Shown: positions 1,438 to 53,614 of the stretch, in pieces | Position numbering within the stretch: the stretch's first letter is position 1 | Layout: every line of letters starts with the position of its first letter | Source: Eledone cirrhosa | Lineage: Eukaryota | NCBI GenBank assembly: GCA_964016885.1 | Contig: OZ024740.1 | Location: forward strand, 179,428,001 to 179,492,000 | Reading direction: 5' to 3' | DNA length: 64,000 nucleotides | Translations under genes and position numbers: made by a program | Notes under the pieces: generated by a model | The model's database searches: none | Seen by the model: the letters and a program-made list of their open reading frames with translations, nothing else | Told to the model about the DNA's origin: nothing

Positions 1438-1812
1438 TTATTTATTTATTGTATTCTCTGTTTGCGCAGGCGTTTGTGCGCGTGTTTTCACCAAACAGAT
1501 GTAGTAGTAGTAGTAGTAGTAGTAGTAGTTGTTGTAATAGTAGTAGCAGCATCAACTGTCGTAGCAGTACGAGCCATGCGTTACAATCTCTCTTGGAAAT
1601 TTTGTGTTGGAATGTCTCATTGCTTCCTCTTGCTGAACTGGCTGTGGTCACTGCAGTCATGAGGGAAATTTATTGGTGGATTGAATGCAATAAAACCTAA
1701 AAGAAAAGATATAATAAAAAATACACCAAGAATAATAGTATAATCCATAAATAGTGCACTGGGTGAAGAATGAGGTATTTCAGAAGTAAATGAAAGGGTT
1801 CATACTATATAT

Positions 1813-1951
1813 AAGGGTGAAAGCAGCGATTCTTTTTTTAAACTTTAATCTGTTATTTTAATAAATGTTTGCGTTGTGGTTTTTATATATTTGATATATA
1901 TCCTTATCGAAGCCTCTTTGGATTTTAGTCTTCACATTTATTATTATTACT
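1813..1951 (+). mobile_element. Truncated 3' tip of the PLE pLTR family found at 34880-35535
   Basis: Near reverse complement of 34880-35022; includes the 3' half of that family's hammerhead; ends in (TA)n. Confidence 0.8.
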
Positions 1952-1960
1952 ATATATATA

Positions 1961-3849: not shown

Positions 3850-4244
3850 TAAGAGGGGGAGCTTTGTCTGTATGTGTATTTATGAATTCATAAAATACAT
3901 TTCTTTGTCTTGGAGGAATAAATTTCAATAAATATTGAAACCGAGTGTATTTAATTTTATTTTCCTTTAGCATCTTCAGCTGCCTATATTTTAATTCAAT
4001 ATATTAAAATGTATTCTTTGAACTACTTTCGATTACATTAATCAATTATTACTACTTTATCTCTTGATAAGTATCACCCAATATTTATATTTAAAACTGT
4101 TGAAATCTGATATAGGCCGTAGGCTTGAATTTTTAAGTGAACGTAGAATTGATTTGAATTCCTCTTATTTATTTCATTGACCTCACCCGGGTAAGATGCT
4201 AAGCTAACCCAAGAAAGTTTAATAATTTGTCTCGAGTCCTGAGG

Positions 4245-6112: not shown

Positions 6113-6275
6113 GGATTGGCAGTATCGGTAGAGAGTCAGACGCCATGCTTTGCAGCACTGAGTTCAAATCCCGCCGAGGTTAACTTTGCCTTTCATCCTT
6201 ACGGGGTCAATAAAATAAAGTACCATTAATGTACTGGGTAATTGCTGGCCTTGTGCCAAAAGTAGAAATAATTAT
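6113..6275 (+). mobile_element. SINE family A
   Basis: Near-identical to 1251-1437, with A and B boxes. Confidence 0.9.
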
Positions 6276-7710: not shown

Positions 7711-8153
7711 CATAAATGTAAACATTTTATTGCAACGATAATGTATGTATAAATGTATCAAAATATGATATTCAACTAGATTGTTTCAGTTTCAAAACCG
7801 ATATTAAATAAAATACTTTGGCATTATGGTAAACCAGACAATAAAGGTGTTAATGTATTCGATTATTTGCTTACATATTCATGGGCGAATATATTGCCGT
7901 CGAAAAACTCTCTTCTATTATTGGTGTCTCTGATGTCAATAAATACTTGTGAGAGTCAGTACCAGACACATTGATACTTTCTAAACAAACACCACTATTA
8001 TAGTATTTCTCTCTTTAGTGATTTATTACTATCAACACATGGACACATATATAGATACACATGCAAAAACTTATATGTGGTTTCGAACAAACATACACAC
8101 ACACACATTTGCACGCGCACGCGCACATGCACACACAAACAGACACACACACA

Positions 8154-16480: not shown

Positions 16481-17619
16481 TAGCATATATAAGTATATCT
16501 ATAAATATAGGGAAAATACCAACATACTGAGCCACTTATTTGATATCTGGAATTGCGTGGTATATTAGTGAACGGGTTCTTATTTTCAAATTTGATATAG
16601 AAAACATGTCTGAAGTTTGTTGCATCATATATATATCTCGTTTTGGATAATATAATTCAAATTTCATCATGTAATGCCGAGATATCATATATATATTTAG
16701 AAAACAAAATTCCCTAACGAAATTCGTATTGATTCGAGATCCAATATTCAAGCCAGTATAATTTTATTAAGTCAGACTAAGAGAGGATCAATCATTGTTA
16801 CTTGCCAACAATCTGACAACACTGTTTCTTTAAGAATTTAAGAATACTTGGTGTCTGAATTATGTTAAAAAATATATTGCTTTATTGGCATTGAGTTATA
16901 CACTTTCGTATTTTTGAAATTATAATTTGATAGCAATGTTTGACGAGGCAATAGAGTATAAAACTGAGGTAACGATGTAAAAAGTCAGCTAAAATTCAAC
17001 GTCAGTGTTATCTACATTTAGTTTAGAATCATTTCACTCTAATGTTATGTAATCAGCTCGTTAAACATTTTCACAAATTCTGGGCTACGTGATGCCGATG
17101 TTTCGGGTCAGATCGTCGCACCTTCCTACATCTGGCCCCTTTCTAGTTATTTTCCAATGCCTCTGTCACTTAGCCAACATGTTTTCTCTGAAAGGAGACA
17201 CATGGTAAGCTCAATTATGAAACGTATATCTATAAGAAATATATATATATACACGCAAAAAACGTGCAGACAAAAGCGTATGCAAGCACATCTACACACA
17301 CAGGATGCACATATATACGCATATATGCCTCGCCCCATGTATATCTAATCACGCGCACGCACGCGACTGTATACACACTCGCACACACAGACACACACAC
17401 ACACACACACATATACATGCTTATATACACACGCACACTTACACATCCATACGTTCGGTACGTACACACACACACACACACACACATACATATACTCACG
17501 CATATTGACCTGTTTGCATGCACACGCATAAAAATGTGGATGTAAAAAAAAAAGGAAGAAGAAAAAAACAAAACAAAAAACATAGATGTAAAAACACAGA
17601 TATAAAGACACATACACAT

Positions 17620-17701
<82 letters not shown>

Positions 17702-17979
17702 GCACGGGCGCGCACATACGGAAGCGCTCGTGTACATATATAGAAAGTATACACACATTAAGGCGTTCAGACACATAGATACAGGGTGTAAAAAACTTGT
17801 GGAGAAGTAAGTACACATATAAAATTATAAGATTGGCTGCGAAAATATAAAAAATAAAAATATCTGGAGTGGAAAACGCAAGTGACCTTTAAAATCAGTT
17901 AGTCAAGAAAATAGGGAAGTAAAAAGTGGAAAGTGAAGATATTAGGTAAGTGAATCGGAGAATAAAGGGGGGAGGGGTC

Positions 17980-19565
17980 CCTTAAAGATCACAAACCCGA
18001 CTTTATTAATCGTCCTAGTTGTAGGTTAATCAACCTTGCTAAGACTGATATTGGTCTTGCCAGCAAAACATTTTAAAATAATATAAATACACACATTAGA
18101 AGTAAGTCTAAATTACTCCAATGGATAAATAGCTCTTCCGTAGTACATTGGTTTAATAATATTAAAAACAAAAATAGTTCTAGATTCACCCAATTTGACA
18201 TTGTAGATTTCTACCCATCTATCACTCAGACCCTTTTAGCGAAAGGTTTACTAGAAGGTTTACTAAGAAGAGAATGTCATCTTGCGCGCTAGAAACACTC
18301 TACTCTTTACTGATAATGACACTTGGGTAAAAATATCTAACCCAGAGAACCCATTCTATGTCTCAATCGGCTCTTATGACAGTGCTGATGTTTGTGATTT
18401 GGTCGGCCTATTCCTCCTACACACACTTAAAGAAAAATTCCCTAACCATATTTTTGGGCTTTATCGCGACGATGGTCTAATACTTTCCCATACCACCATA
18501 GGCCATAACTTATATAGATTAAGGAAAGACTTAATAAAAACCTTCGCTAGTTTTAATCTTAAAATTACTATTGACACTAACCTTTCCAATGTATATTTCC
18601 TAGATATAAACCTAGATTTGCCTACTGCTTCTTATAAACCATACCATAAACCTAATGAAAACTTAAAATATATAAATAAAGGCTCTTGCCATCCTCCTAT
18701 AGTTTTTAAAAACCTTATCCCTAATATTAGCCGTAGGATCTCCACCCTCTCTTCCTCAGAAGCTATTTTTAATAAGGCATCCCCCTACTATAATAAAGCC
18801 CTCCAAAATAGCGGTTTTAGCGAACCGATTAAATACATACCCAACTATACTAACTCTATTAAACATAAAAACAGGAAAAGAAAAATAATCTGGTTCACAC
18901 CCCTCTACTCTCTAGCAGTTAAAACTAATGTAGGCAAAAAATTCCTAGAGCTCCTAGATAAACATTTCCCTAGAACACATAGATACTATAAGATCTTTAA
19001 TAGAAACTGTGTCAAAATTAGCTATTCCTGCGGTCCCCCTATTAAGTCCTATATCATCAACAAAAAATCACCTAGAGAACATCAAAATTGCTCCTGTAGA
19101 ATCAAAAGTGAATGCCCATTACGAGGTAAATGCAACACCAAAGCCATTGTATATGCGGCTAAAGTGACAACCATCAGCAACAACCATCCAGCCACCAGTG
19201 AACGATATGTGGGTATGACGCAAGACAAATTCAAAACGCGTTATTACTCACATGTCGCATCCTTTCGACATCCAGAAAAAAGATTTACAACAGCTCTGGC
19301 TAGCAGAATATGGGATTTGAAAGACCAAGGTATCCAATATAAATTGGATTGGTCAATTTTGAACCAATCTAAAGAATATGCAAGAGGAACAAGAAAATGC
19401 ACGCTCTGCATAAATGAAAAATATTGGATCTTGCAAAATCTTAATACACCAAAGACCTGTCTGAACACAAAGACGGAAATTTTCACGAGTTTCCCACACA
19501 TGAAATCACACCTGCAATCCAGCTCATATAAACTTAACACACTTTCAGATACTTATCCTCCATAA
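17980..19565 (+). pseudogene. PLE reverse transcriptase + GIY-YIG endonuclease (N-truncated; 427-aa open segment 18282-19565)
   Basis: [11 protein letters not shown] and QFDIVDFYPSI upstream with stop/frameshift; IGSYDSADVCDLVG, YRDDG, FLDI, Cys linker CSC..CPLRGKC, IVY..YVGMT..FKTRYYSH, CTLCINEK. The Cys linker is typical of Neptune-type PLEs. Confidence 0.92.
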
Positions 19566-19634
19566 ACTCTTATTATTCTCTTTATAACTACCCTTTCTGA
19601 TTTACTTTCATTTTTATCCTTATTATTAATTTCA

Positions 19635-19851
19635 TTTTTATTTTTATTTTTATTTTTATTTTTATTTTTATTTTTATTTTTATTTTTATTTTTATTTTTA
19701 TTTTTATTTTTATTTTTATTTTTATTTTTATTTTTATTTTTATTTTTATTTTTATTTTTATTTTTATTTTTATTTTTATTTTTATTTTTATTTTTATTTT
19801 TATTTTTATTTTTATTTTTATTTTTATTTTTATTTTTATTTTTATTTTTAT
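19635..19851. repeat. (TTTTTA)n hexanucleotide array inside the PLE 3' UTR
   Basis: Direct reading. Confidence 0.95.
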
Positions 19852-20166
19852 ATTTTAAATTTTTACTTCCCATCCACCAATAACCCCCACCCTCTTTATT
19901 CTCCGATTCACTTACCTAATATCTTCACTTTCCACTTTTTACTTCCCTATTTTCTTCACTAACTGATTATAAAGTTCACTTGCGTTTTCCACTCCAGATA
20001 TTTTTTAATTTTATTTTTTATATTTTCGCAGCCAATCTTATAATTTTATATTTGTACTTACTTATCCACAAGTTTTTTACACCCCGTATTTATGTGTCTG
20101 AACGCCTTAATGTGTGTATACTTTCTATATATGTACACGAGCGCCTCCGTATGTGCGCACCCGTGC

Positions 20167-20222
<56 letters not shown>

Positions 20223-20356
20223 ATCTATATGTATGTATATGTGTCTTTATATCCGTGTTTTTACATCTATGTTTTTTGTTTTGTTTTTTCTTCTTCCTTT
20301 TTTTTTTACATCCTCATTTTTATGCGTGTGCATGCAAACAGGTCAATATGCGTGAG

Positions 20357-20408
<52 letters not shown>

Positions 20409-21176
20409 TACCGAACGTATGGATGTGTAAGTGTGCGTGTGTATATAAGCATGTATACTTGTGTGTGTGTGTGTGCGTGCGAGTGTGTATACAGTCGCGT
20501 GCGTGCGCGTGATTAGATATACATGGGGCGAGGCGTATATGCGTATATATATGTGCATCCTGTGTGTGTAGATGTGCTTGCATACGCTTTTGTCTGCACG
20601 TTTTTTGCGTGTATATATATATATTTCTTATAGATATACGTTTCTTGTAGATATACGCGTGTGTGTACGCGTGTACCTTGTTTGTCTTCTTTTCTTTAAT
20701 TTTTTCTTTCTAAATTATTGTTCCATTTTTATAATTATATCGAAAATGATACTTTCTTTTAATTATTACACTCCCTTACCTCTTTTACTTCCGCATATAA
20801 GTGTACGTGCGTGTGGGTGTGTTTATACGCATGTCTTCATATTCTTATAATGTATCTATTACCCTATTTCTGTGTACCTGCCAAACAGAAAACCACATCA
20901 TGTCTGTCTGTAGTTGACAGATACACAGATACACTTACCCTAACACATATATTTACACACACTTTTTCACTATACGTATACATTTGTACATACACATATA
21001 TGTACATCTGTGAGCGTATATACATACATATACACACACCTAACTATATTTCTTGAAAGATTTTTATATATTTCATATGGCTATTGTAATTCATTTGTCT
21101 ATATTTATATAATTTTTTTTTTTTTTTTTTGCTTTTCTTGATGAGACTTTCCAAGTATTTAGCCATGTTTTATATA

Positions 21177-21248
21177 GCCTCGTCTGACGAACGAATCAAG
21201 ACGTTTCTTTCGTATTCGCCTCATTCGGGAAACCTCTGGTAATGAGGT
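21177..21248 (+). ncRNA. Type I hammerhead ribozyme (canonical core)
   Basis: GCCUCGU CUGACGA A[CGAAU...AUUCG]G GAAA CC UCU GG UA^ AUGAGGU; 7-bp stem I, GUA triplet, predicted cleavage after 21241. Confidence 0.8.
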
Positions 21249-21273
21249 AATTATATTGTATTGATTTTTAGAC

Positions 21274-22745: not shown

Positions 22746-22780
<35 letters not shown>

Positions 22781-22886
22781 GTTTGTATTTGTAAAGACAA
22801 AAGAATGCACGTATGGATATAGAATTTAAATGCAAATGCAAAAGATATTGTTGACAATTAGTCTTTTACCTTAAATTTGTTTAAAT

Positions 22887-22926
22887 ATCCTTAATTTTCG
22901 AGATAATATCTCTTCTTCAGAGGGAT
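22887..22926 (-). ncRNA. Minimal type I hammerhead ribozyme (canonical core) in the inverted pLTR
   Basis: AUCCCU CUGAAGA A GAGAU AUU AUCUC GAAA AU UA^ AGGAU; palindromic AAUU stem III. Confidence 0.7.
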
Positions 22927-23625
22927 GTAAAGTTGTTAAACCAGCGTTCTAAATAGCTTGCCAAGTCATGCTGACAGGAAATGGTATAGAGAATATGTTC
23001 TATCTCTAACGTCAAGGAGTGAAGGTTAGGTGGATAAAGAGTAGTCTCCCTTTAAAAGGGTTTTGTACATGTATGTTTAAGTGTGTGGGAGAATACGTGA
23101 AGGTGTAAGTATGTGTGTGTGTGTGTTTGAGTGTTAGAAGATATGTCTATACGTAAATGTGGGGGATAGATGCTCTATCGTGTTAAAACTGGTCTTTGTG
23201 TGTGTATGTGTGTTTGTGAGAGGGAATAAGTGGAGGTGTAAGCGCGCGCGTGTGTGTGTGAGTACGTGTGCGTGTGTGTGAGGGGGAGGGTGAAAGTATG
23301 GCGCTAGGTGCTCTAAAAAGTTATACATTGGGTGTTGAGTTCTAGTCTATCATTGAACATACATGTACAAAACCCCTTTTAAAGGGAGACTACTCTTTAT
23401 CCACCTAACCTTCACTCCTTGACATTAGAGATAGAACAGATTTTCTATACCATTTCCTGTCAGCATGACTTGGCAAGCTATTTAGAACGTTGGTTTATCA
23501 ACTTTACTTCCCTCCGAAGAAGAGATATTATCTCGAAAAAATCTTTTGCATTTGCATTTATATTCTATATCCAAGACTGCATTGTTTTGGCTTTACAAAT
23601 ATACACGTTTATACCTCTTTACACA

Positions 23626-26179
23626 ATGCTTCAAGTGAACTATAACTTCCTCCTCTCCTTACGCCTGAGCCAGGCCCAGTTCACAACTGTAAAGAAACTC
23701 TTCCAGCTATCTGAAAAGCGCGCCAAAGCTGGCTGCCAATAAACTTCCTCAAACGATGCCTGAATAACAACATCAACCCCCAAACTATCAAAAACTTGCA
23801 CCTACCAACATGCTTCAAATCACCAGGCCTCAAACGATCACTTAGTTACATACAAACATTCTGCCTAAGAAAACTCATACAACACCAACACCGCACGCTA
23901 CAACAACACATACGGACTATTTCCAGCCTTGTACCACAACTCGCTGCAACCCCAGAAACTCTGCCCAGAGTTATCTCCGCCGCTATAGACAGGTCATACC
24001 ACCATCGCCGAGACTACGAGAAAATACGCATAACGCAAACATTTCTCAAACTCAGCACGGCTAACCGTCTTAACAACAACCCAACTCTAAGCACCAACAG
24101 AGGCGAACAAGAGGGTACCAACGCCGAACCTAGCGGCGCCCCGACGAACAACACACCTGACGCAAAACACCTCGTCACAGACTTGACAGGATCCCTCTCC
24201 GAGAGGAATTAGACCTCCTCAGCCTGGGTCCCAAGTGCATATTGAAACAGAGACTGGACGACAAATTATGGCTCGACATAGAAAGAATTTCTATCGGGCT
24301 GCCTATCAACTAAAATAGATATCGACTCTCGCAAACAACACAACGGAATCTAACAAACCCAGATTCCTGATATACCAACTGGATCGCCCACTCTGTCCAC
24401 CGCCTGCCAACCGCGAGCTTGAAGAAAAACTCTCGAGGCTAAAACATTCCGTATTTAACATCTTACGGAAACAGCAGAAACCTCTCCAGGACACAACTCG
24501 CCCTGAAGAATCTACGGAATAGGGAACTTATATACTTACCATCCGGCAAAGGTAAAGAGTTTTGTATCATCTCTCAAACCACATACAACAACCTAGCCTT
24601 TGAACACCTAAGCGACAATGAACTATATACAGAGATCCCGGACATGACTGCTGCCCAGATCGAAAAACAGGCCAACTCCATCTGGTTCGACATCTGTAGG
24701 AGAAGACAACTCCCAAATAAAGTTAAGCTCAACTACACCACTAGAAATAACAGACTGCCCACTTTCTACCACCTCATCAAGACCCACAAGAATAGTACTA
24801 AGACACAAATAAGACCCATTGTTTCTAGCATAGAAGGACCCCTATACACAATCTCCTGGCTCCTCTCCCAGGTCCTCAAGCCTCTAGTCTCCACCTTTCC
24901 CGGGCACGTCAGTAGCTCCGTCGAAGTCATACATAGAATACACCAACTCCAACCAGGTCAACTTGAACTAAATAGATACGCCTTTAGCCTCGACGTTGTC
25001 TCCCTCTACACTACAGTCCCCGCTCATCCAGCTGTCGATTTATTGAAGGACTGCGTGGTTGCAGAGGACATCCACTGCTACGGCCCCCATCCGACGGACA
25101 TACACCAGCTTTTGTCCTTCACAGTAGACAGAACGTACTTCACCTTCCACCACCACACATACAGACAGACAACAGGATTACCCATGGGATCCAGACTATC
25201 GGGCCTGCTGGCCATCATCTATATGAACCAGCTAGACTGCCGAGCTCTCAACACCTGCCATTCCCATACCTTCTTCACCCGATATCTAGATGACATACTC
25301 ATCCTTACATCATCCCATGAGAAGGCGGATCAAATATACACGACATTCTCCAGCATGGACGCTAGTATAGAGTTCAGCATGGAACAGCCCGATGACCGCG
25401 GATCCTTATCCCTACTGGACTTCCAACTCAGGTTTACAGAGGAAGGCAACATCCATACCTGCTTCTATAAAAAAGCTGCCAGCAGGGACCTGTTTGTACA
25501 TTTCAGATCGCCCTCCCAGCCTGCGCTAAGTTCTGATACATAAGGAACGAATTAACACTTAACCGGAACAAATCCACTGACGCTGGAGTCCGAGACACAC
25601 CCACCACACATTTCCTGGAAGTACTCAAACTGAACGGATATACGACGTCCACCACGAACCGTGCCAGAAAGAACAGAGGACACCACACCCGAGGCATTAA
25701 CACCTGCTTCCTGAAGCTCCCACACTTCAGTGAGGAAACAACAACAGCCATCCGCAGAGCTATCAGACGAGAGGGACTAGATGTCCAACTAGCCCACTCA
25801 GGACCTTCTCTATGCGGACGGCTAACCAAACGACACTCCACCAGACATGACAGCCGCTGCAGGCTAGCCAACTGCCCCACTAACGACACAGACCTATGCC
25901 ACCAGGCTTACGTCGTATACAGATTAGAGTGCGACAAATGCAGCAATTTCTACGTAGGTAGCACCACCATACCACTTCACATAAGAATAAAAGGACACCT
26001 CAATACTAACGCTTCCTCATTTAGCGAAATGCAAAAACACCGACAACAACAGAGCAGTTACGATAGAAACTAAGAAAAGAAACCTAGGCAATCTTAGAAT
26101 TAAGGAAGCACTGATTATAGACAAAACACAACCACCAATCAATAATAGACGAGAACTCAACACCCAATTTATAACTTGA
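23626..26179 (+). pseudogene. PLE ORF (RT + GIY-YIG) broken by several frameshifts and stops
   Basis: MLQVNYNF start, NFLKRCLNN, LPTFYHLIKTHK, IRPIVS, SLDVVSLYT, QTTGLPMGS, RYLDD, LSLLD, VVYRLECDKCSNFYVGST..LHIRIKGH, RIKEALII..PPINN. Confidence 0.92.
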
Positions 26180-26584
26180 TAGAGCACTTAGCCCCATAAT
26201 ATCACCCCACCCCTCTTCCACACACTCACACGCACTCACACACGCACACACACGCACACAGACACACACACGCTTATACCTCCACTTATTCTCTCTCACA
26301 CACACATATACACACACAAACACCAGTTTTAACACGATAGAACATCTATCCCCCACATTTACGTATAGACATATCTTCTCACACACACATACACACACAT
26401 ACTTACACCTTCACGTATTCTCCCACACACTTAAACATACATGTACAAAACCGTTTTAAAGGGAGACTACTCTTTATCCCCCTAACCTTCACTCTTTGAC
26501 GTTAGAGATAGAACATATTCTCTATACCATTTCCTGTCAGCATGACTTGGCAAGCTATTTAGAACGCTGGTTTAACAACTTTAC

Positions 26585-26624
26585 ATCCCTCCGAAGAAGA
26601 GATATTATCTCGAAAATTAAGGAT
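26585..26624 (+). ncRNA. Minimal hammerhead, U4C variant (CCGAAGA), in the 3' pLTR
   Basis: Same fold as 22887-22926 with C at core position 4. Confidence 0.6.
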
Positions 26625-26773
26625 ATTTAAATAAATTTAAGGTAAAAGACTAATTGTCAACAATAACTTTTGCATTTGCATTTATATTCTATACCCATAC
26701 CTGTATTGTCTTGGCTTTACAAATACAAACGTTTATACCTGATTACACAATGCTTCAAGTGAACTATAACTTC

Positions 26774-26806
<33 letters not shown>

Positions 26807-34056: not shown

Positions 34057-34730
34057 TAAACAGGAAAAATGAAACGAAATTTCATTTCTCACTCTTAGTA
34101 CGGCTGTTACTTAAATATAAGTATGTATACGTACATACATATATGTATACAGACGTACAGTAGTATGTATATATATATACATACATGCACATATATATAT
34201 ATATATATATGTACGTATGGATTCACCGAACATTTATTATAATGCTCGGTGTGTTTGTAAACAAACATCCCGAATTAAGCCGTACAGTGTCTAGCAACCA
34301 TCGTTGCTCATTTGTTCAACACTGACAAAGGAACGCTGTACTAGTATCAAGCTTGTTAGCTATCGTCAGCAACGTATACCTTCTTGCCAGATGGTTGAAC
34401 GTCTGAAAGTATAAACATTCCTTATGCATATTAACGGCTGAGCAGCCTAATTTGCATATCGAGTGAGTTAATCGAGTGAGTTAATCGGCCGGGGTACCGA
34501 CACGATAAACGGAAAAAAAAATGAAACGAAATTTCTTTTCTCTCTCTTAGTACGGCTGTTACTTAAATATAAGTATGTATACGTACATACATATATCGGT
34601 ACCCGGCCGATTAACTCACTCGATATGCAAATTAGGCTGCTCAGCCGTTAATATGCATAAGGAAAGTATATCCTTTCAGACGTTCAACCATTTGGTAGGA
34701 AGGTATACGTTGCTGACGATAGCTAATAAG
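34057..34730. mobile_element. Rearranged pLTR-like fold-back element with a hammerhead
   Basis: 34352-34500 is inverted at 34596-34730; spacer 34507-34595 is a direct copy of 34057-34145. Confidence 0.8.
34333..34375 (-). ncRNA. Minimal type I hammerhead motif with A14U change
   Basis: ACGUUG CUGACGA U AGCU AACA AGCU U GAUA CUAG UA^ CAGCGU; 6-bp stem I, palindromic ACUAGU stem III. Confidence 0.65.
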
Positions 34731-34798
34731 GTGAATATTTAAATTGTATTTTGATGTTTTTTAAAGAATGTTTAATGCTTGCTTGTTCTGCTCATCTC

Positions 34799-34884
<86 letters not shown>

Positions 34885-34983
34885 ATAATAATAAATTTGA
34901 AGACTAAAATCCAAAGAGGGCTCGATAAGGATAAATATATATCAAATATATAAGAACCGTAGAGAAAATATTTATTAAAATAA

Positions 34984-35057
34984 CAGATTAAAGTTTAAGC
35001 AAAGAATCGCTGCTTTCACCCTTAACGGGATCTTCTGAAACTAACAAAGTCAATCTG
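34984..35057 (-). ncRNA. Full-size type I hammerhead, U4A variant (CAGAAGA); second copy 35601-35675
   Basis: CAGAUUGA..AGUUU CAGAAGA U CCC GUUAA GGG U GAAA GCA..UGC UU^ AAACU UUAAUCUG; bipartite stem I. Confidence 0.65.
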
Positions 35058-35538
35058 TAAACGCAGAAGTGGATATTTCAAAAAACGTTGCGACCGGAAG
35101 AAGACAGGAAGACAATACTTTGGTTCGTGGAAACGTTCGCTATGCAAATAAGTAATGGTATAAACAAAACATATACTTAGCTCCCACATCAAGACGTAAA
35201 ATATCCACGTATAGATCGTACTATCCGTTAGGGTATAACGTGGGGCTGTAATACAGGAAAGTTTTGTGCAATTTATGTTTACAAGCCGAAATTGCCTCAG
35301 ATTTTTTGTTTAAGATGTGGTCTGTGGCGTAGAGTATTTCCAGGGCCTCAGCGGCGCAGAGGTCACATGGTCTTTTATTTCCGTTATACGATCTAGCCCT
35401 AGCTAGGATCTCCCAGTGTAACTTATATTGGGTGTGGTTGTCTTTTAGTCTCCAGATATAAGCTGAAAGTGACGTCATATTCCTTCTTAGAGGGTAACGA
35501 AAAGACTGGGTATGCATGTAAAGACGCTGCTTTAATAA

Positions 35539-35576
<38 letters not shown>

Positions 35577-35757
35577 TTGTATGTATATTTATTAAAATAT
35601 CAGATTAAGGTTTAAGCAAAAAATCGCTGTTTTCACCCTTAACGGGATCTTCTGAAACTAAATACAATCAATCTGTGAACGCAGAAGTAAATATTTCGAA
35701 AAACGTTGCAACCGAAGGAAGAAAGGAAGACGATACTTTTGTTCGTGTAGACGTTCT

Positions 35758-36473
35758 CTGGTAATGAACGAAAAAAACGAAGATAATACGTCATTATTTG
35801 GAGCGTGGAGAGCAATTACACGCAAAGACAAAACCACGTTTATGGTAATCTAAAATTCTATTTAGGAAACCGAATGATTCTCGGCTTCAGAGTTAAGAAT
35901 AATGTAATTAAATTAGAGAGGTTATTGAAATCAACAATAATTAAATATGTATATGCACGCAACCATATACATACATATGCATACGCGAAAACACCCGCCA
36001 TGAGTATGCATATACTAGCACGTACGCAAAAACACGCGCACACATACAAAAAACCTGCGCAACACCTGTACCCGCACAGATACGAACGTATACGCCAAAT
36101 ACACATAAAAATATATAAAAAAGAATATATATATATATATGTGTGTGTGTGTGCGTGTATACATATACTTATATAAACGTATATAAATACGAACATAAAT
36201 ACGTACATAACGCGCGCACACACATACCTACAGGTAAATAGATATATGTTCGCAAAACGACGTCAACCAAAACACAAAGTACGCATATACGCACACCCTA
36301 CATACGTTCAAACCCGCATACACACACAAACGCAAAATACACGTATACACATAACCATATACACATGTAGCAGTATATATAATATAATATATACACCTAT
36401 AACAAATACAAGCAAATATACGTACGAGAAAGTATACGTACCTTCACAAAACATACAGGTAATACTTACTTAC
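35758..36473 (-). other. Spliceosomal GT-AG intron (716 nt) in the PLE 3' region/pLTR
   Basis: Minus strand TAG|GTAAGT donor, TGAC branch-like motif, pyrimidine tract, CAG| acceptor; precisely absent from the neighbouring copy (junction 35139/35140). Confidence 0.85.
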
Positions 36474-39425
36474 CTATACAAATAAGTAATAATATAAACA
36501 TAAAATATACTTAGCTACCACATCAAGACGTAAATTATCCGCGTATTGTTCGTACTATCCGTTAGGGCATGATGTGGGGCTGTAATACAGGAAAGTTTTA
36601 TGCAATTTATGTTTAAAGCCACAATTGCCTCAGATTTTTTGTTTAAGATGTGGTGATAGGGCTAGAGTATTTCCAGGGGTTCAGCGGCGCAGAGATCACA
36701 AGGTCTTTTATTTCCGTTATACGATCTAGCCCTAGCTAGGATCTCCCAGTGTAACCTGTATTGGGTATGGTTGTCTTTTAGACTCCAGATATAAGCTGAA
36801 AGTGACGTCATATTCCTTCTTAAAGGGTTAAGAAAAAAATGGAACGTGGATATTTCAATCTTACATTTGTAGACAATGTAAGAGGGTGTATAATATATAT
36901 ATATAGATAGAGAGCGACGACCTCGTGGTAACGTAGCGAAACAAAACCAATAAGAGAGAGATATTGAGAGAGTTGTAGAAAAAGCTAGATAGACAGATAC
37001 CTATAACATCGCAGTCATGTGTGTGTGCGAGAGAGAGAGAGCGCGTGTGTGTGTGTATGTGTGAGAGAGAGTCTGTATGTTTGCTTAGGGGAGAGCATTA
37101 CATGATTAACTGTATGTTATGTCAGTGAGACGCATCCGCACACACTCATACACACCTACACATACACACACAATAAATTGTAGTCTGCTGGAATGATATA
37201 TGAATAGAACAAATACTGAAAGAAATTATTAGGTTGTCAGTTTGATTCTCGGCGAAAGTTTGCTGACAGTGAACGTATCTGTGGAAATCGTTAATTTCAA
37301 GATCAGGGTCTTCCGTTGTTTGAACAATTGGACCACACTATTTTTTCTTCTCCAAACGTTTCTTATGTCATCTTACCCTTCTTTGCCATCCATATTTTTT
37401 CGGCATGGAAGCAACCGACACAAATTCATTTAAGAACAGTGTTATTACAGAAAATTACGATATCAATATTAATGCAGCACATAATAATGATAATTCTTAA
37501 ACAACAATAATAATAATGATGTAAGGAAAATGTCAAATATCTCAGAAAGAAAGCACTGAAAGAGAAAGGAAATGAATGAAGAAGAGAAAGAAATTCAAAT
37601 AACAACAAATGAAGAGTCTCAAAGACAAGGACGGGAAAGGCTCTCAATTCAAAGGAGAAATAAAATTAGAGAAGAAAACAGATTAGCTCCCCAAGAGTTA
37701 AGAGGAAATTTGACAGAAAAAAGAAGAGATGAAATAAGAGAGGAAAATAGAATTTCTCACAATGAAGCAATACATTTTCAGACTAGGGCGGAACAAGAAA
37801 TTGTAACTCAAGTAGAAAGATCATGGTATGCTGAATTACATAGTTCTGTAAATCATTTACAAATGAAGTATTTGAATATGACCCAAGTAAAAATGATGAT
37901 AATCTATCAAATTTAGGAACAATATCAGTAGTTTGTAAGCATTGTTGTACAAAATTATTCAAAGACGAACCTAAGGGATCATGTTGTTCATATGGTAAAG
38001 TTAAATTGAATCTAATTGAAAGACCACCTGAACCTTTAAATATACTAATGTTGGGGAAGGGATTCCAAAACTTCTTAAAGAATATAAAAAATATAACGAA
38101 TTGTTTTCGATGACATCCTTTGGAGACGGTGAATCAATATCTCTGCCAGGATTCATGTCAGTTTTTAAAAGGTCACATTTATCGCAGAATAAGTTCATTG
38201 TATAATCCAGTTGGTAATATTACGAAATATACTCAAGTTTATTTTATCGATGATTAAAATGAACGAATTAATATTAAAAGTAGCACACTATAACACACAT
38301 CCAAGATATGCTTTTGGAAAATAGTGAGCTTATCAGACAAATTAAAACTATGGCATCTTTTGTTAACAGCCCAAATCTTCAATTGTCAAATAGAATACCA
38401 TCTGGTGAGTATACACGGACATACAATTACCGAGTATCTAATGATATAAGATTAGTAATGGTTGGAACTGAATTTTCACGAAGAAACATAATTTTTACTT
38501 ATAAAGAAAATCAATGAATTACATAGACCCTATGATTCATTACCCTTTGATTCATTGGAGAGGAAATGATGGCTATTCGTTAGATTTACCCTTATACAAC
38601 CCAAAATACAAATCAAACAGTCCCAAATAAGAACGTTACATGCAGGCAATATTACGCAGATCATTTATAACTAAGAAATACTTGGAATCAAATTGTAAGA
38701 TGTAAACGATTCTTCCAAATGTATTTAGTTGATAAGTAAGCCAAAATTGAGTTTGAACAGTTATAGTACATTAAACAGCACCAAAGGGTCGAAGATTCTC
38801 TAAATAATAAAAGAGTACTCAGTGAATTAGGTAGGGTTGTAATTTTACCTTCTACTTTTGTTGGAAGTTCAGGATATTGGAAAGAAAGAATTCAAGATTC
38901 AATGTGTTATGTGAGAGAATACGTCGGACTGATTTATTGATAACATTTACTTTCAATCCTAAATGGAATAAAATCATTGAGAACCTATACAAAGGTCAAA
39001 AAGCCGAAGATAGGCCCTACATATTTGCGAGAGTTTTCAAGCAAACGTTAAATAAAATTATGAAAATATAGTTTGATAAGGGAAGTGGAATAGGTAGCAA
39101 AACAAAGGCCTACATATATACAGTAGAATGGCAGAAAAGAGGCTTACCACATGTTCATATCGTACTTTGTCTAGAGCAAACAATTTTTCAAAATCAATTA
39201 GATACATTAATCTCGGTAGAAATTCCTGATCGAATTGTCACTACATGAATGGTCCATGGTCCATGTGGATTATTAAAGCCGCAATGTCCATGTATGAATA
39301 ACGGAAAATGTGGGGAAAATTACCCAAAAATATTTAATTAATGAAACTAGAATATCCTTTATATAGACGGAGAAAATAGAAGATGGAGGAAGAACAGCAA
39401 CAATAGCAACAAACTCAAAAGCATA

Positions 39426-40365: not shown

Positions 40366-40479
40366 TATAATTGAAAATAGGTGGATTGTACCTTAAAATC
40401 CATTACTTTTGAAAGTATTTAAAGGCCATATCAATGTGGAACTTTGCTCCTCTGTTCAAGCTATAGTATATATATATAT

Positions 40480-40649
40480 AATTGTTTCTACTTTTGGCAC
40501 AAGGCCAGCAAATACCGAGTACATTACTGGTACTTTATTTTATCGACCCCGTAAGGATGAAAGGCAAAGTGAACCTCGACGGGATTTGAACTCAGACCGT
40601 AAAGGGACGTAACTATGCTGGAAAGCATGGCGTCCGACTCTCTACCGAT
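40480..40649 (-). mobile_element. SINE family A
   Basis: Reverse complement similarity to 1251-1437. Confidence 0.9.
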
Positions 40650-42072: not shown

Positions 42073-42126
<54 letters not shown>

Positions 42127-42134
<8 letters not shown>

Positions 42135-42499
42135 TAAGAGGAATTCCAACTTTGTCTGATTTACTCGTTTTATTTACAATCCTTTAAAATATATATAATG
42201 GTATTATAATGAAATAGTATGATAGAATATTAAATTCTAAGTGTTAATTGAACAAGTACTTTCATGCTTTCGCAATCTTCAGGTTCATGATATGTGGTGA
42301 CAGTCGAGTTTGCAATTTTCGACTGTCACCACATATCATGAACCTGAAGATTGCGAAAGCATGAAAGTACTTGTTCAATTAACACTTAGAATTTAATATT
42401 CTATCATACTATTTCATTATAATACCATTATATATATTTTAAAGGATTGTAAATAAAACGAGTAAATCAGACAAAGTTGGAATTCCTCTTATTAATATA
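42127..42499. repeat. Perfect palindrome: 181-bp arms, 11-nt spacer
   Basis: 42127-42307 is the reverse complement of 42319-42499; I saw no mismatch by eye. Confidence 0.95.
42339..42377 (+). ncRNA. Minimal type I hammerhead ribozyme; mirror copy at 42249-42287 (-)
   Basis: UGAAC CUGAAGA U UGC GAAA GCA U GAAA GUAC UU^ GUUCA; GNRA-capped stem II, palindromic AAGUACUU stem III. Confidence 0.8.
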
Positions 42500-42553
42500 A
42501 TCTTCTATACACAATCATACACACCCGTGTATATTTACCTATCTATATCTATC

Positions 42554-42704: not shown

Positions 42705-42867
42705 GAGAAATATGGAGTGATTTTGATTTTTTCAACACGTTCATGTGTATGTGTGTGCGTGTGTGTATGTGCATATACACACATTTATATTTATGAGTAT
42801 ATATCCGGTATAAAAGTTTTGTGTATAAAATTGGGTGTTAGCACAGCGTGTACTGTTGTATGTATAA

Positions 42868-43053
42868 TAATTGTTTCTACTTTTGGCACAAGGCCAGCAA
42901 TTATCCCAGTGTATCACTGATACTTTATTTTATCGATCCCGTAAGGATAGAAGGCAAAGTTAACCTCGGCGGGGTTTGAACTCAGACCAAAAAGGGCCGT
43001 AACTCTTTGCTGCAAAGCATAGTGTCCAACCCTCTGCCGATACTGCCAATCCA
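42868..43053 (-). mobile_element. SINE family A
   Basis: Reverse complement similarity to 1251-1437. Confidence 0.9.
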
Positions 43054-43265: not shown

Positions 43266-46200
43266 ACCAACAACAATTGGCAACAGATACACCAAACGTT
43301 CAGGGAGGAAGAAACAGGTCAATTGAAGGTCTGGCAAAGAATCCTACATATGAACTTTTCAAAGAGCAAACTGTCATTTCCATAATTCCACAATATAATG
43401 CATGCAGGGAGTCTCTTTGCCTCTGTTTGTGCGCACTGCAAAGCTTATCGCTGTCCACATGAAACGAAATCTCTGTGCTGATTCCAGGGAAAGTGAAACT
43501 TCCCCCAAGGAAACCATGATACGAGCTGAAAAGTATGAGGGTTTGTATGATGCTGTGGCTGAAGGAGATTCAGTAAATGCAAGTCAGATAATAGTTCTTC
43601 CTCCTTCAATCTATGGTTCCCCTTGCTTCCATAGTGAGTGCTTCAAGAATTCAATGACTGTGTTTCGACACATGAGAAAGCCATCTTATGTCATCACTGT
43701 AACATCTATCCCTAAATAGTTTGTACCCTGGGTCAGATTCTAGGGATCGTCCCGATATTTGTGCAAGAGTCTTCAAGATTAAGTATGACAGCCAAATGGT
43801 TGACATACTGAAAGCAAATGTCCTAGGAAAAGTTGTGGTTCATTCTGCTATAATATAGTGACAGAAACGAGGCCTCACTCATGCTCATATTCTGCTGATA
43901 ATGGCTGAAGATGGCAAGCCCCGAACTGCTGATGCCATTGATCAGGTAGTGCACTGTGAAATTCCTGATAAAGAGACCAATCCAATTCTGCATAAGATCA
44001 TCACATCCTGCAACATTCATGACCCATGTGGACAAGCTAATATGATGTGTTCATGTATGGAAGGGCTAGGACAACAACACCATTGCTCTAAATCTTATCC
44101 TAAGGTAATCAGATAAACCACATTTGTTGCCGAAAATTCCTTTCCAGAGTATAGAGGAAGGGATAGACAGAATAGTGGTCACACCCATACAATGCAACTT
44201 AAAGGTCCAGTATTTACTGTTGATAATCATTGGATTGTTCCATACAACTCTTTCCTCTCAATGAGATTCCAGTGCCACACCAATTGTGAGGTTGTCCACA
44301 GTGTCAAGGCTGTTAAGAACTTGTGTCCATGCGCAAATGAGATTGAGACCTATATCAATGCACGGTACATCTCAGCCAGTGAAACATTCTGGAGAATCTA
44401 TAAATTTCCGTTACATCATCGGAAACCGCCAGTTGAAAAGTGGCCTTTCCATTTACCTGAGAAACAAATAGTCGTGTATGAGCGAGGGCAGGAAGAAAGT
44501 GTTGTTTCTAGGGAACAGCCAATGACTAAGTTGACGGAATATTTTCCACTGAATATTAGAGACCCAGTTGCTCAAAACATATTGTATATTGATATTCCTA
44601 AATATTTCACTTGGACAAACAAAAAGTGGCAAAGAAGAAAAAAGGGACATCTGGATGGTGATCAACAATTTATGAGTGAATCTCTCAATAGACACCAATC
44701 TGAATTATATTATCTCAGGATGATCCTACATCACAAGCCTGGGTCAACTTAATACAAAGATTTGAGGAGAATTGAAGGGATTGAATTTCCCCCATTCCAA
44801 GAAGCATGCAGGAAACTTGGTCTGTTGGATGAGGATGGAGGAAAAGACTAAGCTATGGAAGAGGACTCGTCCATTACGCTTGGTCCTCAGCTACGAGAGA
44901 TCTTCTGCACCATTTTATTGTACTGCATGCCAAATGACCCTCTGCAGGTCTGGGAGAAATTGAAGAATTGTCTTGCAGAGGATACCATGCATGAACGTCA
45001 TGAACAAGTCATGTCCATGCAAACCGTGCAGATTGTTATACAGAAGATCAAACAAAGACTTCAACATTATGGCTTGGACATTCATGCCAACTGTGGATTT
45101 CCGCGGCCAGACCCAACTATTGTTGACATACCAGAAATCAACAGGATTCTTATGGTAGAAACTGATTTCGTCACACACCAACTGCAAGCAAACATAAATG
45201 AACTTCTGCTAACATTGAATACTGAGCAACTGGTTATATTTCACAAGGTAATCACCTCTGTAAATGAAAATGAAGGTAGAATTTTCTGCATGAATGCAAG
45301 TGCAGGCACAGGAAAGACCTATGTCATCAACCTCATATTGGATTACTTCCGATCTAAAGGTAAATTGCACTTGCCACTGCCATATCTAGAATAGCAGCTA
45401 ATTTGCTTCACAAGGGTCTAACTTTTCATTGCAAGGGCAAGATTCCTCTCAACGTGGGTGTTGAATCAACTTCTTCACTAAGCGGGATGCCACAGGTAAA
45501 CTTATGCAGCAATCTGACCTGCTAATCATTGATGAGATATGTATGCGACATAAGCAGATCTTCGAATGCCTTGACAGGATCTTCAAAGATGTTAACGGTT
45601 GCAAAGAGCAATTTAGTGGTCGAACAGTATTACTATCTGGTAAATTCTTGCAGTTGTACGTTATGGTGTTAGACAATAAATAGTTGAGGCAATCATCAAG
45701 AAATCTTATCTCTGGGACTATGTGGAAACCATGGAGATGACAACCAATCAATGGTTAATTAATGCAGAGGATTCTGATGAAAGGCAGTTTGCAAACTACC
45801 TTCTTGATGTGGGAAATGGTAAAATTCCAATTCTACCAACTGTAGGTGTATTCACAATTCTTCTGCCAAATGAACTTTGTCTGGCATATGGTAATGTGTC
45901 TGGACTGTGTGATTTTGTGTATACACATCTTCCTGGAAACTACACAAACCCACTATTGCTTGCAAATGGAGCCATTATCATTCCAACAAATGATATTTAA
46001 CAAGTTCCCTGGTGATGGAATAATCTACAGAAGCTTCCATACCGTTGATAATGAACTGCAATATCCAATTGAGTTCATCAACAAACTTACCCCATCAGGC
46101 TTCCCAACACACATACTTAAACTGAAGAAAGGGAGTTGCATCATGCTTTTGATAAATGTGGATCCTCTAAACGGGCATTGCAATGGTACCCGCTACATCA

Positions 46201-46526
46201 TCATCAGTTTACATAATCATGTAATTGAAGCTGAAATGGCATTGGGTCCCAATTCTGGAACAAGGTTGCCAATCTCAAGGATACATTTTCCGTCAACAGT
46301 TTCATCACTTTTCCATCTCCATTATCGCCTTTTTTTAAAAATGTATCATGGATTGCTTTACTGATTACAAAAGTTAGTGTAACACAGTCTTTTTTCAGTT
46401 TATGTGCACATTGTCAATTTACTTTTCAATTTACGCATCATATCTATATGCATATATATTTGCGTATATCAATATGAGCACTGTAGATGCTAGCAGAAAA
46501 CCGTCCCGGGGCGGTTACTCTGCTAG
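43265..46526 (+). mobile_element. Degraded Helitron B (Rep + Pif1-type helicase) nested in Helitron A
   Basis: IVLPPSIYGSP, QKRGLTHAHILL (HUH), DNHWIVPYN, ARYISASETFWRI, Walker A ASAGTGKT, LIIDEI, LKLKKG..MLLINVDPLNGHCNGTR; 3' hairpin and CTAG|T at 46523-46527. Confidence 0.92.
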
Positions 46527-47527
46527 TACGGAATAATGACCAATATAATGAAGTCAATGAGTGTGTAACAGGATTTTATCTCAATAGTAATGAGACAGCA
46601 TGGTAAATCCTTCAATTTAATATTCACATGCGATACCCAGCAGTTCAACAATTAGATATACATTTAGAAAATGGCCAAGGAGTGTACTTTACCAGTAATA
46701 ATGTTGAAAGTAGAATTATAAATCCCCTAAATAAAACTTTAATTTCGTTCTTCATTGAACGAAATTGACGAATATGCAAGCAGTTTCTTATATGAGGACA
46801 TACCATCTCATTGTACCCTTACTTCCAAAAAAACATAGAAAGGAAGATTTGTACAAACATGTTCTAGAATTTACACTGTACCACCTAATCAAACATAATG
46901 CTATTGTCTCAGTTTATTGCTGAACGTAGTTTATTGCTGAATGTAGTTAGATGTCAAAAAATGTTTCAGAGCCGTAAAAGCAAATAAAATATTTAGAGAA
47001 GCTTATTTTGGCAAGGGATTGTTAGAAGAAGACAATCATCTAAATCTAGCACTTAGAGAAACTGTTTCTTCCAAACTGCCATGCCAAGTGAGATACTTAT
47101 TTGCAATAATTCTAATTCATTGCAAACCTCCTTATCCTGTAGTGTTATATGAAGAACGTAATCAACCAATGTCAGCTGATATTCTAAATAGATTGACAAA
47201 CAATCAGCAAGAGAAAATATATGATGAAGAAATATTATACAATGAACTTTTACACAGACTTAAAGCTCTTTAATATGAAATAGGACAAAGGGCTTTGATT
47301 GAAATAGGACTACATGAACCAACTTATGAAGAACTATAACATTGAACCAACTATGAAGAACTATAACATTGAAAGAGTAAATGAACACTTAGAACACTTA
47401 GAAACTTTGTGAATGAAGAGCAAAGACTTATTTACACCATAATCAATGATTCAATAACTAATAGAAATGAACAAACATCATACTCTTTAGATGCTCCATG
47501 TGGAAATGGAAATATATTTTTGATTAA

Positions 47528-47692
47528 TAATTGTTTCTACTTTTGGCACAAGGCCAGCAATTACCCAGTGCATTACTGGTACTTTATTTCATCGACCCCC
47601 CGTGAGGATGAAAGGCAAAGTTAACCTCGGCGGGATTTGAACTCAGAATGGCAAGGACCGTAACTCTATACGTCAAATCATGGCGTCCGACC
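47528..47692 (-). mobile_element. SINE family A
   Basis: Reverse complement similarity to 1251-1437. Confidence 0.9.
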
Positions 47693-51234: not shown

Positions 51235-53190
51235 CACGTATGGACTCACATGCACACACGCGTATAAATAGCCTATACTGAGTAAATATGTATATATATC
51301 TTAAAGAAACATTAGAAATGCCAAATATATGTATTTTCGTGTGAATAGCTTTTATCTCGTGGAAACACACACACACACACACATATATATATGTGTGTCT
51401 CTGTGTGTGTGTAACGTTATAGAATTTTAAAAAATGTACGTGAATAGAAATGCCGACCTACATGCGTGCACACACGTACAAATAAATATGCGTCTGTGTG
51501 TGATAATTTCAATGAGAGGTAGTAAGTATGTATGATATATATATATATTTGATAATTATAAACTTCGAGATTCATGATTAAAATAGAACAAACATAAAAA
51601 CCTAATATTGTTTACAACATGAAAATGCATCTTCCTAGAGCTCTCTCTGAAGGTGTTGCTATACTATTTTATAAAATGATAGAATGTTAAATACCTGCTT
51701 TTTGACGTTGCAGATATAGATGGAAATTTTATTCTGATGAGGATGGGAATATAGATAATTAGAAAAAATAACATATACTCAGTAATATACATAAATACCT
51801 AGATTCACATAGATTACTTTTCAAGCAAAGCAAATGCATAATTTTAATATAATTATCTTCCTATATTTCTCTGCATATATTTTGTTTTCTTCTCAGTAAC
51901 TTTCTAAATTGACAGGAGGGTGTTTATTTATCTATTATCCAGAATTATCAAAATTTGAAGAATAGAAATTTCATGCGAGAACCCACAGCAAATTTTGAAA
52001 GTTTATTCCAAAATAAAGTAACATGGCGATATGTTTAGCCTATGTCTGTTTGTTTCACATGGATGCGAATATAAAAAGCAGTTCAGATGGCTTGTTTACT
52101 TCAAATAACCTTACCGTGATCTTTAAAACTAGAATTTATGTGTTCCATACACTCAAGGAGTCCTTATAAAAATATCAGAATAATTGTTAAAAGGCTAATT
52201 GGATATATATATATATAGGAGAAAGGATGAATGAGGATTGGTTTATTAGTGGAGAATTGAAGAGAAATCACGTAGTGCTCTGCTAACATGGCAAACCAGA
52301 ATACGAGAGCTCAATAGAAAACTTCAAATATAAATTGAATCTGGGGAGAGAATAGATACGATGCTCAGGCAGATAAAGTGGGCACACATATAACTGAATG
52401 TATGTCTAAAATCAATAGAATGATTGGAATAACAACAAACCTGCAATATAGCGACTAGGGATAATATAAGGATGCATCTGAACAAACACAAAATGATACA
52501 TAGATAGAATGCTTCCATAGAATGCAAAACATTAATCGAATAACTACGTATTGACGGGAGAGAGATCGAATAAAAAGAAAATAGGACGCACTCACAAAAT
52601 CTTGTGGGAGAAAAAAGACACAAAAGACACATACATGCAGTGATAAACATACATATTTACCAAACACAGAAGCAGTCAAAGACACGCACACAAACAGAGT
52701 CAGACACAGACACAAATGATCACGCGAGCACATACCATATACACACCTCAAAATTGTATGTAGTAAATAGAACAATGTCCAGACCAGGTGTAGACACAGT
52801 GAGCAAGAATAATCATCGAGAAGGTCAAAGGATGTGTAAATTAATCGACGAATGGACTAGTTACTCAATTAACTGAAGTGAATCTGTAGTGTGCGTGTGT
52901 TTTTAAACACTATTCACATATAACAATATCGTTTTAACACATGATTTCACATCAGAAATCTTGCAAACAAATAGTAGATTAAATGAATATTTCTTTGATT
53001 AGTTTACGTGAATCAAGAATATAGAATCATAACACCAACAATCCAAAGTAAAATGTGAAAAATTCTCTTTGTAAGGTTACTCAGTTAATTTGATGTAGAT
53101 ATTTTGTATCTAGATAAGTAGCAGGACTCCATAGTTATCTTATAAAAGAAATCAATACAAATGTATTCAACATTCTGATTATATCTTTAA

Positions 53191-53614
53191 TAATTGTTTC
53201 TACTTTTGACACAAGGCTAGCAATTACCCCAGTACATCACTGGTTTTATGTTATCGAACTTGTAAGGATGAAAGACAAAGTTAACCCCGGCGGGATTTGA
53301 AATCAGAGAGCAAAGGGCCGAAAACTGATTATTTTAATTTTTCTCTATTTAATCGGCATCGTCCTGAATATTTTATCATTCTATTTCGCCTATATAGGGC
53401 GGTAAATTAGCCATATCGATAGAGTGGCGAATAAAATGCTTTGGGACATTTAGTTACGACTTCTTTAGGTTCTAATTTCAAATCCCACCAAGGACAGCTT
53501 TGCTTTACAACCTTACGGCGGTGATGAAATATACCAGTAACACACTGGGCTCCTTTTAATTGATTTTCCGTCCCCTAAATTGTTTGGCCGTGTGCCTAAA
53601 TCAGAAACTATTAT
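53191..53614. mobile_element. Two diverged SINE family A copies, head-to-head (53191-53322 minus, 53396-53614 plus)
   Basis: Similarity to the family A body and tail. Confidence 0.75.

Follow-up and report, generated by a model that had tools for sequence, protein, structure and literature searches.

When one copy of a retroelement carries a segment that its neighbour lacks, does the difference record the splicing of the RNA from which such copies are made? This question is raised by a 64,000-nt stretch of the genome of Eledone cirrhosa (contig OZ024740.1, positions 179,428,001 to 179,492,000; here called the window, in whose coordinates all positions are given), in which two copies of a Penelope-like element (PLE) lie side by side on the minus strand. 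A sequence-only reading of this DNA had taken them to be one 3' region in a spliced and in an unspliced version. From the comparison of many copies we consider it quite probable that the additional segment, which belongs to the terminal repeat of a Hydra-like PLE, is a spliceosomal intron and that the reverse transcriptase (RT) copies sense RNA of any splice state.

Aligned on the minus strand, the two copies differ by a single large gap of 716 nt, which is filled in the right copy only (35758-36473). The insert opens with GTAAGTAAGT behind an exon ending in TAG, forming donor 1 (TAG|GTAAGT, 36468-36473), and closes with a pyrimidine tract and CCAG, the acceptor (35758-35775). In the left copy the flanks are fused exactly, TTTGCATAG|CGAACG, at 35140/35139. 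The placement of the gap is ambiguous by the 2-nt AG common to exon end and insert end, and the flanks hold no direct repeat longer than this AG that could be a target site duplication (TSD). CA/TA-rich tracts are visible inside the insert. The alignment thus bears out what the sequence-only reading had said of the AG|GTAAGT...CAG ends, the exact fusion and the CA/TA repeats. It does not bear out the matched pair: the copies belong to different subfamilies and agree at 330/363 positions in exon 1 and 152/172 in exon 2. Since their exons are only about 90% alike, they are separate insertions in TA-rich DNA and their adjacency is incidental.

Three forms of the element across the genome

Exact sequence patterns were searched across the 3.0-Gb genome; the patterns were 21–27 nt long, so that percentages derived from them are approximate. 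The acceptor is kept at 7880 exact places and donor 1 at 3996, donor-2 copies included, against 306 precise donor-1 joins of the kind seen in the left copy. Donor 2, AAG|GTACGT, lies 32 nt into the intron (36436-36441 in the right copy). First found in locus L233, it is fused to the same acceptor at 101 exact places, and these copies retain exactly the first 32 nt of the intron. Reversed-pattern controls gave 0 matches. With each form found again in copies that number hundreds to thousands, and with empty controls, the patterns are not due to chance. Donors are lost to 5' truncation more frequently than acceptors, and the acceptor side was therefore used as denominator; on this basis approximately 5% of the arms are joined and 95% carry the intron.

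Both donors match the consensus AG|GTAhGT and share one acceptor. Among 102 intron-bearing arms sampled, TAG|GTAAGT is found in 80 and CCAG in 82, and TAATGAC, about 30 nt 5' of the acceptor, was picked out by eye as a candidate branch-point position. An internal AG|GTATGT (+238) and a duplicated internal acceptor (+611) gave 0 joins genome-wide, and recursive splicing at the former as well as use of the latter were therefore rejected. In a sample chosen by an exon-1 motif, the first 100 of 3189 places comprised 93 with the donor kept, 4 donor-1 joins, 2 donor-2 joins and 1 imprecise deletion; 53 of them were read (50 kept, 1 donor-1, 1 donor-2, 1 imprecise deletion) and 47 were assigned by coordinate match to other lists (43 kept, 3 donor-1, 1 donor-2). 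When loci were chosen by intron sequence alone, exon 2 followed the intron's 3' part in 27/30. The sequence-only reading had named as informative a count of both forms, a look for variable breakpoints and the possibility of an independent transposable element with its own TSD; the counts, the six precise joins to one imprecise deletion, the absence of a TSD and the regular presence of exon 2 all speak in its favour. Judged by these DNA copies, the insert likely behaves as a spliceosomal (U2-type) intron. When four contig sets of unrecorded kind were aligned to the right copy, none of the 15 joints listed fell at an end of the intron; this alignment carries no information on splicing either way, and contig depth gives no ranking of the parts.

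How often the joined forms arose can be approached through the exons. A tree was built from the exons of those 127 arms, out of 244 distinct ones, that retain no less than 250 nt of exon 1 and no less than 200 nt of exon 2; they comprise 61 kept, 54 donor-1 and 12 donor-2 arms. It includes poorly aligned tail and (TA)n columns; for the approximately unbiased (AU) test the rows were trimmed to 560 nt. In the tree the subfamilies follow one another like the rungs of a ladder, and joined copies are found everywhere except on the oldest branch sampled. The intron is present in the oldest and in the youngest subfamilies. A single clade of donor-1 joins was rejected by the AU test with 44 rows (p=1.6e-5). 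One set of private markers, TA deletions, occurs at 49 places, of which the first 30 are 20 intron-bearing and 10 joined arms, and one donor-2 copy bears the same markers. An intron-less master for this lineage was ruled out because the markers are common to the 20 intron-bearing copies. Since the private markers are the same in copies with the intron and in spliced ones, the source elements would mostly have kept their intron.

A second marker set defines a smaller lineage with 12 places, 9 of which were assigned by coordinates: 10 joined arms from 7 insertions, and 2 intron-bearing ones. It is a sub-lineage of one in which donor 2 is damaged (GTTGTA, as in L480 and L482). If donor 2 were a decoy that lowers splicing, its damage in both intron-bearing members of this mostly joined lineage would fit, but 29 intron-bearing places have the same damage. 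In loci L270-L299 and L400-L419, most donor-2 joins fall into a single mid-age subfamily (92/100 listed begin exon 2 with G), and most donor-1 joins into a younger one; this difference suggests that donor choice shifted between sources.

The unit and its RNA template

Natural full-length tandems (L180-L184) display the unit: a leader, an open reading frame (ORF) of about 2.1 kb and the stop, then 81 nt up to an intron with a length of about 750 nt, and finally exon 2 (about 258 nt), which continues into the next unit. Among the intron-bearing arms sampled the intron measures 513-1530 nt; in young copies its length is about 750 nt. From the acceptor it is 302 nt to the next ATG, and the intron of the 3' region doubles in tandem copies as the 5'-leader intron of the next unit. 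These 302 nt hold 0 or 1 ATG compared with about 4.5 in shuffles (four tandems, in one of which the stretch began slightly inside the intron); the intron itself holds 20.

Two fixed 3' end points in exon 2, at about +172 and +258, are common to all three forms (81 and 67 of 181 kept arms, 72 and 55 of 143 donor-1 arms, 27 and 19 of 54 donor-2 arms). Joined copies require a sense RNA that had met the spliceosome; as the kept copies share their ends, these most likely derive from sense RNA too, in this case unspliced. The three DNA forms and their common ends thereby make it most likely that both spliced and unspliced RNAs were reverse transcribed, as the sequence-only reading had supposed. Joined copies extend far into the ORF, some through the whole of it, and therefore the excised intron was 3' of the stop codon in the template.

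Head-to-head pairs bear on whether both arms of an insertion had one template. We found 76, of which 45 have complementary ends and both states called: 24 donor-1/donor-1, 14 kept/kept, 5 donor-2/donor-2, 0 donor-1/donor-2 and 2 mixed, so that both arms of one insertion have the same form in 43 of them. The other 31 comprise 17 that agreed, 4 mixed neighbours without complementary ends and 10 with an uncalled arm. The two mixed pairs, L019 and L264, were not counted as true inverted pairs, since read base by base they are deletion-fused neighbours with differing subfamily markers. In choosing loci, 52 (L368-L419) were picked by list position alone. Direct tandems agree as well: L185 has the donor-1 join twice and L365 the donor-2 join twice, and theirs are the only two joined arms that continue into the next ORF, each with a partner of the same form. 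Such partners may be explained by one RNA unit read repeatedly or by an intron-less source; taken together, the enzyme probably reads one RNA more than once. Ends within 45 nt of the donor are found in 10/63 joined arms versus 0/30 intron-bearing ones (p=0.027). A transcription start just 5' of donor 1 was not accepted as the reason, because joined junctions lie 750 nt closer to the point where synthesis begins, and early truncation is more to be expected there.

By its motifs the element appears to be a high-copy, Hydra-like PLE. In 14 long natural copies scanned, DKT replaces DKG (HSDKTG, 14/14), and the N-terminal RWK site reads LRWRA (13/14), the change to RWR being conservative. A CxCx5C linker, NCNCRNRVDC or a near variant, stands before the C-terminal endonuclease (13/14), which has the motifs CDLC..E (13/14) and LNKKSE...CKH (9/14). 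A rough self-made CCHH pattern matched 0/14 of them, and Pfam returned no family for two pieces of the element, one of 470 aa. DKT, CxCx5C, CxxC and CxH fit the Hydra clade of Craig et al. 2021 (PMC8557442). A (TA)n tract borders the end of both window copies and of the loci that were inspected base by base. The left copy (34880-35535), 5'-truncated, intron-less by a donor-1 join and of a mid-age subfamily, has the long 3' end with a tail of about 86 nt, adjoining a (TA)n target tract at 34806-34879. Its C-terminal ORF remnant (35221-35535, stop 35221-35223) preserves the endonuclease end with CDLCAAE and LNKKSEAISACKH. A TA/TG microsatellite (35536-35584) separates it from the right copy (35585-36842), which is also 5'-truncated, belongs to the oldest subfamily sampled, bears the intron and has the short 3' end without tail; its ORF remnant (36555-36842, stop 36555-36557) is frameshifted. 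A third, short fragment of the family (1812-1952, plus strand), an exon-2 end with tail and 89% identical to the left copy, lies between TA tracts.

U4 is important for hammerhead catalysis, the canonical core of a type I hammerhead being CTGANGA together with GAAA. Here the core reads CAGAAGA in 319/323 distinct copies and CTGAAGA in none, an A replacing U4. The putative motif spans 34992-35042 in the left copy and, with more changes in stems I and III, 35609-35659 in the right copy (core 35648-35654); its layout resembles, by eye, that of the Hydra hammerheads in File S2 of PMC8557442. An Rfam search of the window returned no hammerhead, only microsatellite-driven microRNA matches below gathering scores. 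A fold with three stems, having 5, 3 and 5 pairs, is attainable at -5.5 kcal/mol, while the minimum-energy fold differs (-8.8); the folding z-scores were 0.35, 0.0 and -1.46. Of the earlier placement of the intron between ORF stop and hammerhead, the position holds, 81 nt behind the stop and about 100 nt before the motif, whereas the identity as a hammerhead is weakened by the core and the missing Rfam match. With 103 nt between the acceptor and the first base of the core, the sequence of the motif is left unchanged by splicing, unlike in Penelope of Drosophila virilis; given this distance and the non-canonical core, the suggestion that splicing regulates the ribozyme finds no support. Both 3' end points lie 3' of the predicted cut at +143, which fits uncleaved RNA as template, as described in PMC11167929.

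Weighing the explanations

We favour the following course of events. A tandem element would be transcribed through the ORF, the stop, the 81 nt, the intron and exon 2. Most of the RNA used by the enzyme would be unspliced at the downstream intron, and a minority would be spliced, about three quarters of it at donor 1 and the rest at donor 2. Priming at (TA)n would let synthesis begin at the two fixed exon-2 points. One RNA or one source would be read for the two arms of an inverted insertion, and likewise for the two repeats of a direct tandem. In the tandem, the intron ahead of the next ATG would serve in the leader of that unit. The rarity of spliced templates may have its reason in the 50-55-nt rule for nonsense-mediated decay, as an RNA that is translated and has its junction 81 nt past the stop would be directed to this pathway. 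Intron-less sources may also be poorly expressed, as has been reported for D. virilis Penelope.

Several observations weigh against this account. Splicing is read here from DNA copies, and no RNA junction was seen. Both joins share the 2-nt AG, often AGG, with the acceptor, and a microhomology deletion would yield identical letters. The joined copies cluster on the tree, with at least 24 changes of state compared with 42.6 (standard deviation 3.0) under shuffled labels, although this comes partly from sampling. Their share is uneven, 35 versus 1379 in the youngest subfamily and 14 among the first 100 places of a mid-age group that has 757, and reaches 10/12 arms in the small lineage described above. 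Several long loci were picked since both their arms were listed, which makes the pair counts non-random, and spliced direct tandems were found only twice. Intron-less sources would also account for the uneven share, and the agreement within insertions would then be trivial for those copies. Sources may have differed in splicing, or some intron-less copies may have served as sources, and both may hold.

The strongest competitor accepts splicing as real but rare in templates and lets most intron-less copies descend from a few intron-less sources of single origin. The uneven share, the clustering, the small lineage with 7 joined insertions to 2 intron-bearing ones, and the full-length intron-less tandems L185 and L365, which could act as sources, all agree with it. 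Yet the marker set that had seemed most private proved common to intron-bearing copies once it was sampled by marker, the donor-2 copy with these markers cannot have come from a donor-1 source, and in the mid-age subfamily joined and intron-bearing copies are equally diverged (1.74% and 1.79%). Besides, every founder would still require splicing followed by reverse transcription. We regard this explanation as possible, though distinctly less probable than repeated copying of spliced RNA. A different route to the same junction letters is a back-spliced circular RNA, in which the donor behind the ORF joins the acceptor before it and the enzyme reads round the circle. It would account for junctions behind the stop codon, for copies that pass the ORF start into exon 2 (L187, L360, L362, L367) and for the direct tandem with the same rare donor twice (L365), and it would make the non-canonical hammerhead dispensable. 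On the other hand, direct evidence for it is lacking, no spliced array beyond a partial tandem was seen, the equally long intron-bearing tandems require a linear multimer or another route, and linear RNA suffices for most copies; we hold such circles to be unlikely. In a broader and likewise rather improbable proposal the splice form is a barcode of the template: every Penelope-type insertion, whether inverted or tandem, would stem from one sense RNA unit read repeatedly, the intron-less unit would be a spliceosomal back-spliced circle, and the hammerhead would have been left to decay during the expansion to thousands of copies.

Explanations that dispense with splicing fare worse still. Repeated microhomology deletions, or template jumps of the RT at AG, could exploit the 2-3 nt shared at both joins; moreover, what follows each donor looks like the beginning of exon 2 (GTACGT, GGAACGT), and other deletions do occur in copies L225, L019 and L264. 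Such events would not, however, be expected to choose consensus donors and a single acceptor with a pyrimidine tract at both joins while passing over the two other AG sites, nor to leave 6 precise joins beside 1 imprecise donor deletion in 100 unbiased copies, and the many independent origins indicated by tree and AU test argue in the same direction. We consider them very improbable. That the 716 nt entered one lineage by an insertion of their own, the intron-less form being ancestral, could be suspected from their wealth of simple repeats and variable length. The lack of a TSD, the exon 2 that follows at nearly all loci chosen by the segment's own sequence and its presence in the oldest as well as the youngest subfamilies count against an insertion, and the tree and the donor-2 copies, with exactly its first 32 nt, contradict it. 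This possibility can practically be dismissed. We therefore retain the reading of the segment as a probable intron and of spliced and unspliced sense RNA as probable templates.

Neighbouring repeats and known relatives

The window holds further repeats. A second Hydra-like PLE family (18267-21272, plus strand; about 1000 candidates genome-wide) is represented by a 432-aa open remnant and an inverted copy of the 3' region at about 17219-17978. Its stop is followed by a CA/TA-rich stretch of about 1.6 kb and a hammerhead-like motif, CTGACGA...GAAAC, at about 21180-21250; like the main family, it shows 3' ends of two types. Among 30 loci chosen by the 3' end with a query biased to the long form, no join to its ORF end was found, and an intron could not be assigned. 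A Penelope-type element (23715-26073, plus strand) has RT and GIY-YIG remnants and 356-nt inverted repeats flanking it (22774-26776), and a decayed element (1984-3024, minus strand) keeps a remnant of a GIY-YIG/CCHH-type endonuclease (YIGAT...H...H). Decayed remnants at 37800-39400 and 44117-46364 (plus strand) we take, from their motifs, to be Helitron-like Rep/helicase. Fold-back hairpin elements with arms of 130-233 nt occur in TA tracts (34345-34737, 42075-42551, 941-1116), and a short repeat resembling a short interspersed element is present in five copies (40478-40614, 42867-43004, 47527-47665, 53190-53325, 6158-6275).

With the Hydra-clade PLEs of PMC8557442, among them Hydra-1_Obim, the E. 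cirrhosa family has in common DKT, CxCx5C, and CxxC and CxH around a conserved E and N, furthermore the C-terminal endonuclease, the (TA)n targets and the hammerhead layout with a T on either side of stem II. It differs by RWR for RWK, CAGAAGA for CTGANGA, a copy number in the thousands and an intron in its pseudo-long terminal repeat (pLTR), about 750 nt long; the accessible text of that paper mentions none for Hydra. Judged by eye, Hydra-1_Obim is a different family with another 3' end and ribozyme.

An intron in the pLTR is known from D. virilis Penelope, where it lies 5' of the hammerhead and the next ORF, is retained in DNA, and both spliced and unspliced RNAs are reported (Schostak et al. 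2008, PMC2377424; Cervera and de la Pena 2014, PMC4209133). The arrangement ahead of the motif and the next ORF and the retention in DNA copies are shared by the E. cirrhosa family. However, the Penelope intron is 75 nt long and reaches with its end into helix I, which means that splicing alters the ribozyme, whereas the intron described here ends about 100 nt before the motif. Intron-less genomic copies and a second donor are not reported in the accessible parts of PMC2377424 and PMC4209133; circular PLE templates formed via the hammerhead were proposed in the latter. Chlamys-3_cRei likewise has a pLTR intron in the 5' untranslated region with two splice isoforms, of 398 and 751 nt (PMC8557442), but these were seen in RNA and not as DNA copies, and the element belongs to a clade with N-terminal endonuclease. 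For PAc, a Poseidon element of Anolis, two internal RT start points define the tail in vitro, similar to +172 and +258 here, and uncleaved RNA as template and AT-rich targets were described (Frangieh et al. 2024, PMC11167929); its start points lie inside the ORF, those of the E. cirrhosa family in the leader, and the intron state was not used in that study as far as its accessible text goes. Arkhipova et al. 2013 (PMC3846280) discussed an antisense template for intron retention and left the choice between antisense and unspliced sense RNA open; head-to-head inverted insertions and intron retention are common to their elements and to ours. Precisely spliced copies with the same ends as the retained ones favour sense RNA in the E. 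cirrhosa family.

In the accessible portions of the literature searched, including PMC6765202 and bioRxiv 10.64898/2026.07.22.740005, we found no report of precisely spliced genomic PLE copies; the founding paper of Arkhipova et al. 2003 may bear on this point. The pLTR intron and its retention are already known, and what is new is a countable set of spliced DNA copies. Three RNA forms appear to be recorded in the DNA of this family by the hundreds to thousands, which favours sense templates and suggests that about 5% of them were spliced. The splice form may serve as a barcode provided by nature, with which one can ask if the two arms of an insertion stem from one RNA, and the family would offer a countable case of precise intron loss mediated by reverse transcriptase.

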